Origin: an uncultured Dehalococcoidia bacterium
GTDB taxonomy: Bacteria > Chloroflexota > Dehalococcoidia > Lucifugimonadales > UBA3495
DNA length: 54,007 nucleotides
Direction: 5' to 3'
Assembly (NCBI GenBank): GCA_950072105.1
Contig: CATMOE010000021.1
Span: forward strand, 1 to 54,007
The position numbers were made by a program, and so were the translations under genes. Positions 1-39,751 of this stretch are shown piece by piece. Every line of letters begins with the position of its first letter. The stretch's first letter is position 1. A model generated the notes under the pieces. That model did not search any database and was not told where the DNA came from. It saw only the letters and a list, made by a program, of their open reading frames with translations.

Positions 1-261
1 GACGCCGATCCTGGAGAACTCCTCCTCGACGATGTACTGGTCGATACGGCTGCCGTCCTGGCCGCCGTATTCCTTGGGCCAACTGATGCCGACCCATCCC
101 TTGGCGGCAACTTTCTTGCGCAAGTCCCGCACCAGCGGACCCTGGCTCATCTCGTCGGTATTCTCGATCTCACTCCGGACGTCTTCGTTCACGTTCTCTT
201 GGATGAACCGCTGGACCTCGTCTCGAAGGGCTTGTTGTTCGGCTGTGTAAGCAAACTCCAT
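1..261 (-). CDS. Acyl-CoA dehydrogenase family protein, 5' part (runs off the window edge)
   Basis: Manual translation from ATG at 261: MEFAYTAEQQALRDEVQRFIQENV...KKVAAKGWVGISWPKEYGGQDGSRIDQYIVEEEFSRIGV, the typical ACAD N-terminus (W..P.EYGG). GGAGAG SD upstream. Not in the ORF track. Confidence 0.9.
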   Translation of the reverse strand, partial: MEFAYTAEQQALRDEVQRFIQENVNEDVRSEIENTDEMSQGPLVRDLRKKVAAKGWVGISWPKEYGGQDGSRIDQYIVEEEFSRIGV

Positions 262-4190: not shown

Positions 4191-4326
4191 AACCCTTTAT
4201 CCAGAACGGCAGAGGGCACGGCCCGATGAAGCCTAGCAACCGGTCCTAGCATTCTAGGGAAGCGGGATACGGTGCTAATTCCGGCGTCCTTCCCAGGTAC
4301 CTGGGAAGGACGAAAGATGAGGGGTT
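4191..4326 (+). ncRNA. SAM-I (S-box) riboswitch aptamer
   Basis: P1 aaccctttatc/gatgaggggtt; TTATCCAGA, GAGGGcacGGCCC, TGAAGCC..GCAACC, GGTGCTAATTCC, AGATGAG consensus elements; lies upstream of SAM-cycle genes. Confidence 0.95.
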
Positions 4327-6801: not shown

Positions 6802-6869
6802 CCGTTCGACCTGAGCTTGTCGAAGGGCCCCTTCGGAAAAGGATGGTTCGACAGGCTCACCACGAACGG
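6802..6869. repeat. REP-like palindromic element (CCGTTCG...CTGAGCTTGTCGAAG / TTCGACAGGCTCA...CGAACGG)
   Basis: Inverted arms ccgttcgacctgagcttgtcgaa and ttcgacaggctcaccacgaacgg between the rhodanese gene and ahcY. Confidence 0.75.
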
Positions 6870-9503: not shown

Positions 9504-9583
9504 CGACGCCTAGACCTGAATCACATCCTCGTCGCGGGTTGTGAATCGGCTAAAAGCGGCATAAAATGTTCCCCAACTAACAG

Positions 9584-9610
9584 CAGGCCGGGACGATTAG
9601 TCCCGGCCTG
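9584..9610. other. Perfect 11-bp hairpin between metK and the selenoprotein gene
   Basis: caggccgggac-gatta-gtcccggcctg; no U-tract, so its role (pausing, stability, termination) is unclear. Confidence 0.6.
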
Positions 9611-9634
9611 AACTGCAAGGTAAGAGGAAGGGAA

Positions 9635-10378
9635 ATGCGGAAGCAACAGCGGGACAGGGTTTTCAGTAGCTTAACCGAAGAAGAAAACACCATTTATCGC
9701 AACCTCATCCGGGAGGTCCGCTCCGAGCGGAAATCGTCCTCATCCAGCCAATTCACCGCCAGAGAGGTGCTGGAGCCACGCAGAGGCGGCTTGTCCTCCG
9801 GAGTACAAGAGGCTTTGGACGCCGTGATCGCGCGGGACGAAATGGGCCCAATGGCTGGAGAACAGCCTCCCGACTTCGATCTTAAGCTCATGGGGACTGA
9901 AGAGCGGGTCCGTTTGTCCAGCTTTAAGGGAAACCGCGCGGTGGGGCTGATCTTCGGCAGCTACACTTGACCCCCTTTCCGCGCTCAGGTTGAGCGTATC
10001 GAAGAGATCAGCCACCGGTTCGCCGAGCAAGTCGAATTTTTCGTAGTGTACGTTCAGGAAGCTCATCCCACCGACGGCCGCCAGACCGATAGCAACGTTG
10101 CCGAAGGTATCCTGTTCCGGCAGCACCAGAGCTATGGCGAGCGGGAAGAAGTGGCTCAGACCTGCAGCCTGGATCTTCACATTACCTTGCCAGTCCTCGT
10201 CGAAGAGATGGATAACTTGATAGACGAGGCTTACGGCGCCGCGCCCGAGCGCCTGTATGTGATAGACGCCGACGGCCGTGTCGCCTATCACGGAGGCGCC
10301 GGGCCTCATTTCTTCGATATCGACGAGTGGGAGCAGGCCATAGAAGTTTGTGTCGGCAAGGCAAAGGTCACCGGCTGA
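9635..10378 (+). CDS. Iodothyronine deiodinase-like selenoprotein (thioredoxin fold), 247 aa, Sec (UGA 9968-9970) at residue 112
   Basis: ORFs 9635..9970 and 10046..10378 share a frame with only one TGA between them. Read-through gives LIFGSYT-U-PPFRAQV...YVQEAHPTDG...RQHQSYGER...VEEMDN...YGAAPERLYVI...YHGGAGP, matching deiodinase motifs (FGSxTUPxF, YIxEAHxxDGW, ERLY, GxxGP). Confidence 0.9.
9981..9997 (+). promoter_or_regulatory. Bacterial SECIS-like hairpin
   Basis: 10 nt after the UGA: GCGCUC-AGGUU-GAGCGU. The G-containing AGGU loop resembles the E. coli fdhF SECIS apical loop (GCAGGUCUGC). Confidence 0.8.
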
Positions 10379-10416
10379 ACTGACTTGGATCCTTAGGGAT
10401 GTAACCACGGCAACTC

Positions 10417-33686: not shown

Positions 33687-33761
33687 GTCTAATCATCCCT
33701 GTCTGCCACATGGGGCATCTTGAACCCGGTTCGGCAGGCCGCCCTTAACAACCGAATGTTC

Positions 33762-33928
33762 TACCCGAGGCGCTGCAAACGGCTTAAGGCTTAATAGGAA
33801 AGGCGGTGAAAGGCCGCCGCGGTTGCGCCACTGTATGCGGGTTTAGCTTGGGTCCTGTTTCTCGTATCTCACGATTTGAGACGGGAAACCCCAGGCGTAT
33901 CCCGCGAGTCAGGACACCTGCCCGGGTA
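33762..33928 (+). ncRNA. Cobalamin riboswitch (1)
   Basis: AATAGGAAAGGCGGTGAAAGGCCGCC-GCGGTTGCGCCACTGT ... GAGTCAGGACACCTGCC; P1 tacccgagg/cctgcccgggta; upstream of cbiE-cobN. Confidence 0.88.
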
Positions 33929-34017
33929 AGGGGAGCTCTCGTCTGCGCTAAACAGAAACATGCCCCCGTGGCGCTACCCTAATTTAGGATCGCGCCACGA
34001 CCACGCCAGCAAACTCT

Positions 34018-39449: not shown

Positions 39450-39519
39450 AGGCCCATCGCCAACCTTGGACCGCTGGAGTCGGCTGGTTTTTAACGAGCA
39501 AACCTTAACAAATGAAGAC

Positions 39520-39704
39520 TGCCTGTTGGTGGCCCCGATAAATCGGGGCTGAAAAGGGAAGCCGGTGTAAGTCCGGCGCGGTCCCGCCACTGTAACTGGT
39601 GAACCAACCCAAGCCGCAAGGTGCGAAGTCACTGGCCCGATAACCCGGGCCGGGAAGGCTGGGAGAACGGTTGAAGCCAGAAGCCAGGAGACCTGCCACA
39701 GGCA
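39520..39704 (+). ncRNA. Cobalamin (AdoCbl-type) riboswitch (2)
   Basis: AAAAGGGAAGCCGGTGTAAGTCCGGCGCGGTCCCGCCACTGT ... CACTG...GGGAAG ... AGCCAGGAGACCTGCC; P1 tgcctgt/acaggca. Confidence 0.96.
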
Positions 39705-39751
39705 TGGATTGATACACTTCGAGGCAGAGGGTATGAATTGGACGGATTTTC

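Follow-up and report, generated by a model that had tools for sequence, protein, structure and literature searches.

A predicted deiodinase-like selenoprotein of a probable SAR202 bacterium keeps the deiodinase proton-relay network and lacks the thyroxine-holding residues

Results

A single gene divided by an in-frame TGA

The window, that is, the whole stretch of 54,007 nucleotides analysed here, corresponds to contig C21 in an assembly of 4.08 Mb, estimated at 92% complete and 6% contaminated. On its forward strand, positions 9635..10378 hold a deiodinase-like selenoprotein gene of 247 codons and a terminal TGA, as delimited by the PF00837 match, the structural model and the start of the orthologues. 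The sole internal stop of this frame is the TGA at 9968..9970 (+), assigned to Sec112 and equivalent to Sec170 of mouse Dio3. Reading TGA as U yields 247 residues, and U112 and the terminal TGA are the only codons that differ from table 11; calling with table 11 gives two ORFs, 9635..9970 (111 aa) and 10046..10378 (110 aa). A preliminary description of this DNA had taken the two ORFs for one frame broken at FGSYT*PPF, and the translation agrees. The deiodinase motifs listed there are all located in the read-through protein, namely FGSYT-U-PPF at residues 107-115, YVQEAHPTDG at 139-148, RQHQS of the second-His motif at 162-166, YGAAPERLY at 200-208 and GGAGP at 220-224.

The gene starts 131 bp beyond the metK stop, past an intergenic 11-bp hairpin (9584..9610). 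By sequence inspection, a purine-rich RBS-like stretch (9624..9632, +) lies 5' of the ATG at 9635; a weak sigma-70-like promoter match (9/12; 9539..9567, +) is not above chance, with one found and 0.5 expected. Orthologues have the same start Met, end near the same point and stop with TGA, TAA or TAG. On the opposite strand, an ORF of 222 aa (9740-10408, -) runs in register with the gene and may get called in place of the split gene. It was rejected as a real gene and is regarded as a shadow frame, because the sense frame contains just two TTA/CTA/TCA codons.

It had been anticipated that standard pipelines would split the gene, and this is indeed the case, since the public protein collection lists the two halves as distinct entries, on 105 and 111 contigs. 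A search for shorter homologues returned 775 proteins; among the 120 listed, 4 have SYT as their last residues, 112 are C-halves and another 4 are C-halves with an altered motif. One 125-aa C-half (P0292; 78% identity) bears the database name 'Thyroxine 5-deiodinase [Geodia barretti]' and is probably a bacterial symbiont gene inside a sponge assembly.

The TGA as a predicted selenocysteine codon

The metagenome scan confirmed 172 loci, of which the best 80 (57-97% identity) were kept; one of its search patterns demanded a Cys codon and the other left the TGA site uncovered. All 80 of these best loci carry TGA at the Sec112 site, as do 9 of 9 full-length copies in 8 related genomes (49-94% identity; 39 relatives examined). 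In addition, three RNA-library runs, each from a different study, have assembled contigs that extend across 9968-9970, with their listed differences elsewhere. Together, these observations speak against both chance and a sequencing error. The same contigs cover the gene and the entire 8 kb examined alike, and thus give neither a level nor a start of transcription. In five of five pairs, dN/dS is 0.08-0.25 before the TGA and 0.07-0.12 after it, which indicates from codon comparison that both gene halves are under purifying selection.

The pairing of Cys and UGA at residue 112, expected if the codon specifies selenocysteine, is also found: 143 of 154 database homologues have C at this position (some possibly U written as C), and TGC is seen at the site in the DNA of two loci (L159 and L037). 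Four of the 154 database forms have W; in two of these entries (P0023 and P0028) the Trp is probably a UGA translated by a gene caller under a TGA=Trp code.

The machinery for selenocysteine insertion is present in the host genome, with selA, selB and selD above cut-off together with tRNA-Sec, and selD has a TGA of its own. Presence of selA in 18 of 18 carrier genomes is not discriminating, because 7 of 8 non-carrier relatives also have it. The gene itself is patchy, being found in 9 of 23 genomes of the family and in 7 of 300 of the order at E<=1e-30; a search of genome contigs with the single protein gave one locus.

Downstream of the codon lies a bacterial SECIS-type hairpin (9981..9997, +), with a 6-bp stem (9981-9986/9992-9997) and a loop (9987-9991) containing a conserved G at 9988; counted from the T of TGA, the stem is at +14..19/+25..30 and the G at +21. 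In an ungapped alignment of 24 distinct sequences, distant paralogues included, 88% of 144 cells are paired and two-sided changes occur at 6 of 6 pairs, against 33-45% pairing in slid registers. The covariation score of 0.82 was reached by 0 of 500 shuffles, a test inflated by relatedness and by the derivation of the structure from the tested sequences themselves. Among the best 80 of the 172 metagenome loci, 47 form 6/6 pairs and 33 form 5/6, partly because the peptide is conserved, and the loop G is present in 77. All six pairs form in 12 of 20 TGA forms; in the tiny non-Sec control, the pairs formed (of 6) number 2 and 4 in two TGC-coded homologues, and 4, 3 and 3 in three homologues coding for Ser. 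The folding energy of the 61-nt region is unremarkable (z 0.31), and Rfam has no family at the gene. The fixed geometry fits 51 of 113,380 TGA triplets of the genome, and it is an incomplete detector, because it was drawn from this one element and misses the TGA of selD.

Reading through the codon is denied by a rival explanation in which the locus is a pseudogene, two genes, a sequencing error or a case of TGA=Trp. In a ninth genome, one relative (L047, on contig C1 of G004) is frameshifted within the SECIS region just after the TGA, from assembly error or decay, and this locus, like the four W forms, could be cited in its favour. However, the TGA conserved across the best metagenome loci, the selection on both halves, the covarying hairpin, the complete Sec machinery and a single continuous predicted fold across the codon all speak against it, and for TGA=Trp there is the further objection that TGA is also the terminal stop of the gene, exchanged with TAA or TAG in orthologues. 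We consider this rival hardly credible. By contrast, it is almost certain, judging from these sequence features, that a single gene would be translated through UGA112 as Sec by SelB and tRNA-Sec, with the hairpin 11 nt downstream guiding the insertion.

The host genome contains further UGA-interrupted, redox-looking frames. Probable UGA-Sec sites, each in a long open frame with a SECIS-like hairpin, are at C1:197308, C3:32526, C3:69061, C13:61227, C38:21125, C40:1982, C45:8510, C78:4382 and C95:2990.

A deiodinase fold with a soluble N-terminal domain

Membership of the deiodinase family, proposed from the motifs, is upheld by both profile and structure. The read-through protein matches PF00837 (T4_deiodinase) with 102.8 bits (cut-off 27) over residues 75-237, across the TGA, and a phmmer search of the PDB gave sequence matches to Dio3 and Dio2 only. 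NCBIfam NF038285 (deiodinase_rel; 347 positions) scores 194 bits, below its cut-off of 250, over model positions 114-342, so that the first 113 model positions have no counterpart in the protein; two relatives score 194.5 and 206.7 bits.

The AF2 model, built from an 88-sequence alignment, has a pLDDT of 95 and a pTM of 0.90, with four N-terminal helices followed by a thioredoxin-fold core. The catalytic core with its deiodinase loop insertion (residues 70-247; 9842..10375, +) is assigned from PF00837 and the structure matches. Foldseek places mouse Dio2 and Dio3 as the best matches to the model, and VIA-align gives Z 21.7 for 4tr3 (rmsd 2.4, 169 aligned) and Z 20.7 for 9h48 (rmsd 2.9, 170 aligned). 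ResA comes next (Z 18.0, rmsd 1.9, 137 aligned); ResA, AhpE and BCP range over Z 16-18. The four-helix N-terminal domain (residues 1-70; 9635..9844, +) is soluble and lacks a hydrophobic anchor and a clear structural match, the best hit among 48,161 chains having Z 5.7, which is uninformative for a small helical bundle. No transmembrane anchor was found, the maximum 19-residue Kyte-Doolittle value being 0.18 in the N-terminal part and 0.82 overall. The predicted product is a soluble, probably cytoplasmic thioredoxin-fold selenoenzyme.

A quick maximum-likelihood tree of 151 core fragments was built without animal rows and without rows missing the motif pattern (e.g. P0066); it carries SH-aLRT support only and long-branch warnings outside the subfamily. 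In it, the window protein falls in a 97-row clade (SH-aLRT 99), in which 96 rows have TGA and one, a database row, has Cys. Phmmer scores give no support to this subfamily being nearer to the animal enzymes than all other bacterial members: the protein scores 78.1 bits against mouse Dio3 and five other bacterial family members score 70.8-91.6.

A second deiodinase-like group in Chloroflexota has UxxC or UPPF, a C-terminal extension and in some members Ser for Sec (L018-L021, L030, L052-L060, L165-L167, L174-L181). Another family, f27 (L061-L071, L073, L075, L076), matches PF00837 weakly; the two genes read encode UxxC peroxiredoxin-like lipoproteins, and often two such genes lie close together in a genome.

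The active site compared with deiodinases and peroxidases

Residues were mapped through the phmmer alignment to 4TR3, with Dio3 numbering and roles taken from PMC7506546 and PMC11592359. The kept residues (Dio3/here) are Ser167/S109, Thr169/T111, Sec170/U112, Pro171-172, Tyr197/Y139, Glu200/E142, His202/H144, Gln218-His219/Q163-H164, Arg225/R170, Glu259-Arg260/E205-R206 and Gly276-Pro277. The Y139-x-x-E142-A-H144 element is encoded at 10049..10066 (+), its roles being those described for Dio3 (PMC7506546), and Q163-H164 at 10121..10126 (+). In the best 80 of the 172 metagenome loci, S109, Y139, E142, H144, H164, R170, E205 and R206 are present in all 80, R206 being fixed by the search pattern, and T111 in 79.

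The changed positions are Arg275/A222, Tyr257/A203, Phe258/P204, Arg176/Q118, Asp278/H225 and Cys168/Y110, and Cys239 is absent. Ala occupies position 222 in 77 of the same best 80 loci; Dio3 Trp207 is Arg149 here and Trp in 71 of them. In Dio3, the substitutions Tyr257Ala, Phe258Pro, Arg275Ala and Cys168Ala are reported to lower activity (PMC7506546). Comparison of the aligned residues therefore indicates that the proton-relay network of the deiodinases is kept, whereas the positions that would grip thyroxine at its amino-acid end (the equivalents of Arg275, Tyr257, Arg176 and Asp278) are changed. One rival is that the protein is a true deiodinase of iodothyronines or iodotyrosines, with substrates resembling thyroid hormones that come from algae, sponges or animals. 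In its favour, UPPF is shared with Dio2 and Dio3, and a close half-protein comes from the sponge assembly. The equivalents of His219 and Glu259, invariant in the best 80 loci yet found in 11 and 12 of 154 database forms (His164 and Glu205 here), point in the same direction. With the thyroxine cleft altered, we regard this reading as very unlikely.

Beyond these residues, the protein shares with animal Dio1-3 (PDB 4TR3, 9H48) the fold, S-x-T-U-P-P-F, YxxEAHPxDG, QH...R, ER and GxxGP, with about 30% identity across the core. It differs in having no transmembrane anchor, an extra Cys in helix alphaD, and Ala222 and Ala203 in place of Arg275 and Tyr257, which hold the substrate carboxylate in Dio3; its SECIS is of the in-frame bacterial type, whereas that of animal Dio is a 3' UTR element. 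The animal deiodinase homodimer is required for activity (PMC11592359).

The extra residue, Cys177 (10163..10165, +), lies in a helix (167-180) of the AF2 model and, from its conservation, is a candidate resolving cysteine: it is present in all of the best 80 of the 172 metagenome loci and in 117 of 154 database homologues. Because the resolving Cys of poplar GPX5 occupies the equivalent helix (PMC7506546), a Sec112-Cys177 redox cycle is plausible by analogy. This leads to a further rival, a general thiol/selenol oxidoreductase, which might be a peroxidase of the atypical 2-Cys type, reduce disulfides or sulfoxides, or scavenge reactive halogen oxidants, and which would run on such a cycle; deiodination would then have been acquired later by the animal enzymes. 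Its other supports are ResA, AhpE and BCP as the next structural neighbours, weak matches to AhpC-TSA (32.4 bits) and Redoxin (31.5 bits), the size of the PF00837 family (3293 clusters at E<=0.001), and more distant relatives with UxxC or with EF-hand fusions, as in the deiodinase-like protein of PMC9402790. A redox role was also put forward for the family by Zhang et al. in 2005 (PMC1088965). Still, the PF00837 score is three times that of AhpC-TSA, and the protein retains a deiodinase loop and network that a plain peroxidase would not need.

Peroxiredoxins have the active-site motif PxxxT/SxxC. Here the corresponding stretch is L105-IFG-S109-YT-U112, with Leu105 in the Pro place, and the subfamily has neither CxxC nor UxxC, which likewise speaks against the oxidoreductase. 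With the atypical 2-Cys peroxidases and TlpA/ResA proteins (GPX5, Tpx, BCP, AhpE, ResA), the protein shares the Prx-like thioredoxin fold (Z 16-18) and a candidate resolving Cys in the alphaD-equivalent helix, and it differs from them in having no PxxxT/SxxC or CxxC and in its deiodinase loop insertion. We rate the oxidoreductase as a serious if rather doubtful possibility.

Host genome and gene neighbourhood

A Dehalococcoidia-like host had been suggested. In agreement, members of the 90% clusters to which its ribosomal proteins S3 and L2 belong bear the names Dehalococcoidia or Chloroflexota. A MAG with the title Chloroflexota bacterium contains a gene of 94% identity, and half-proteins at 77-78% identity are named SAR202. 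The stretch is present in 19 runs, 18 labelled marine, seawater or vent and one merely metagenome. By ribosomal clusters, homologue names and marine run labels, the host is a marine Dehalococcoidia bacterium, probably of SAR202.

Upstream of the gene is an mtnA-mtnP-rhodanese-ahcY-metK run headed by a SAM-I riboswitch (4194-4323), and downstream is a gene of the phosphoglucomutase family. Among 10 genome loci (71 of 101 ORFs scanned), the metK/ahcY/mtnAP arrangement occurs only in two genomes of the same genus and in G010. A function derived from this operon was rejected, as the arrangement is rare and a 131-bp gap with a hairpin intervenes.

Elsewhere the neighbours vary. In metagenomes (61 of 74 neighbour representatives scanned, one per cluster), the upstream gene at 54 loci of at least 2.5 kb is a dienelactone hydrolase in 17, MetK in 6 and the DoxX of a bufferin-type cluster in 3. 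The 17 dienelactone-hydrolase loci form one clade; the genome G008 also has a dienelactone hydrolase directly upstream. A haloacid dehalogenase II gene lies 14 nt downstream in L111 and in L112 ends after 64 codons.

Both of these loci belong to a 25-row clade. In this clade, genes for a MerR-type regulator, a DF-family (seleno)protein and a Mer-type transporter lie upstream in L094, L132 and L102, while L111, L112 and L130 have a bufferin cluster on the upstream side. They raise the possibility of metal or organometal detoxification, in which the selenolate would bind Hg or Cu, or cleave carbon from metal by means of the same proton relay, much as an organomercurial lyase does. We find this improbable, as those 6 of 54 loci all belong to the one clade, such neighbours are absent from the 10 inspected genome loci and the window, and selenoprotein genes may merely cluster. 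The bufferin-type MNIO cluster and the nearby UGA proteins speak, in turn, for the oxidoreductase: AhpD-related and DUF3179 proteins in the 25-row clade, and PrdB-like and peroxiredoxin-like neighbours in L092, which lies outside it. At the non-SAR202-looking loci L092, L094, L100, L102, L111, L114 and L132, the gene stands amid UGA proteins, Mer-type clusters or bufferin clusters.

The host genome contains three TIGR02486 (reductive dehalogenase model) and two TIGR01428 (haloacid dehalogenase II) matches above cut-off, and 10 strong dienelactone hydrolase copies. In all, TIGR02486 has six matches, on contigs C25, C117 and C9 (L195, L196 and L197); these putative dehalogenases are 420-480 aa long and contain Fe-S motifs. 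Three are above cut-off and three, in tandem, below. Hydrolytic dehalogenases are reported to be common in hadal Chloroflexi (PMC9088039). Given such mixed neighbours across loci, the context suits both a halogen and a stress role; it is not conserved and does not decide the function.

Other features of the assembly include two cobalamin riboswitches in the window, one (33751-33939) heading a tetrapyrrole methylase/CobN pair and the other (39509-39714) an FhuF-like/ABC transporter cluster. A REP-like bipartite palindromic repeat at 6802-6869, with 70 short blastn matches genome-wide, causes loose ends in read mapping. On contig C23 (17631-22111), 29 tRNA genes lie on one strand, as in phages or integrative elements.

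Discussion

The window protein is a member of the bacterial deiodinase-like selenoprotein family PF00837, known since 2005, when four Sec and six Cys bacterial sequences with a bacterial SECIS were described (Zhang, Fomenko and Gladyshev, PMC1088965); the preliminary remark that such proteins had been noted in environmental bacteria was therefore correct. Subsequently, 22 deiodinase-like proteins were listed in the GOS survey (PMC2398784), and a Dictyostelium homologue was reported (PMC2375036). BSepDB took in SAR202 genomes and counts two Dehalococcoidia among the ten richest selenoproteomes (PMC13326102), and its entries may include the gene of the window. A selenoprotein alone is thus unsurprising here, as both the family and selenoprotein-rich Dehalococcoidia are in print. 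In the literature searched, with most subscription journals outside coverage, we found no biochemically tested bacterial deiodinase-like enzyme and no link of these proteins to SAR202.

Like other members of the prokaryotic family, the protein has UGA-Sec in its catalytic site and a SECIS of bacterial type whose loop contains the G, and it has Cys homologues. It differs from the family at large in that its subfamily has a helical N-domain of its own. A 2026 review, according to which such families are bioinformatics-derived, gives the family motif as UxxC (PMC13188914), in contrast to the UxxF (UPPF) seen here. As the table of the GOS survey gives this family no motif (PMC2398784), UPPF is a trait of the subfamily and not a criterion for the family. 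What the present comparison adds, as predicted from sequence and model, is a kept deiodinase proton relay combined with changed thyroxine-end residues, an anchor-free four-helix N-domain and a conserved Cys177.

We propose the following mechanism. After read-through, the Sec112 selenolate would abstract I or Br from the ring of an aromatic substrate. A network of Ser109, Thr111, Tyr139, Glu142, His144, His164 and Arg170 would meanwhile hold the substrate loop in place and protonate the carbon. Re-reduction of the oxidised selenium would most plausibly go through a selenenylsulfide with Cys177 and a thioredoxin or small thiol. Thyroxine is probably not what the enzyme acts on; more likely it is a halogenated aromatic without an amino-acid side chain, of the halophenol or halogenated diaryl-ether type, encountered during degradation of marine organic matter. 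Taken as a whole, i.e. Sec read-through together with a selenolate-based, B12-free reductive dehalogenase for non-thyronine iodo- and bromo-aromatics, this explanation falls just short of an even chance in our judgement.

Several findings favour dehalogenation: the deiodinase fold and network, the TIGR02486 and TIGR01428 genes in the host, and the dienelactone hydrolase and haloacid dehalogenase II neighbours. Others oppose it, including the changed Dio3 pocket, the variable context, a dienelactone hydrolase link confined to one clade, a second clade with stress, metal and other selenoprotein neighbours, and a phmmer score no closer to mouse Dio3 than those of five other bacterial members; moreover, the TIGR02486 matches are model matches. 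The cobalamin-dependent RdhA enzymes of that model have an unrelated fold and resemble the protein solely in the net reaction proposed for it, besides occurring in the same genome; corrinoid and Fe-S motifs are absent from the protein. A dehalogenase or a peroxiredoxin-like reductase had been suggested beforehand, and from the sequence we likewise infer that the protein may be either: the network is kept, the thyronine cleft is not, the peroxiredoxin motif is absent and the context is two-sided.

The gene call itself bears on annotation. As public collections hold two halves, one close half under a sponge name, surveys of dehalogenation genes in deep-ocean Chloroflexota overlook this protein. 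Among bacterial deiodinase-like proteins, the subfamily is a good first candidate for assay, because it is soluble, small, confidently modelled and has the full Dio proton network. Tentatively, and with some doubt, we suggest that this near-pure Sec subfamily may give SAR202-type marine bacteria and a second lineage a cobalamin-free, selenium-based reductive dehalogenase for natural iodo- and bromo-aromatics. If true, this would add a new route to marine halogen cycling and would provide a soluble, expressible model of the chemistry ancestral to the thyroid-hormone deiodinases.
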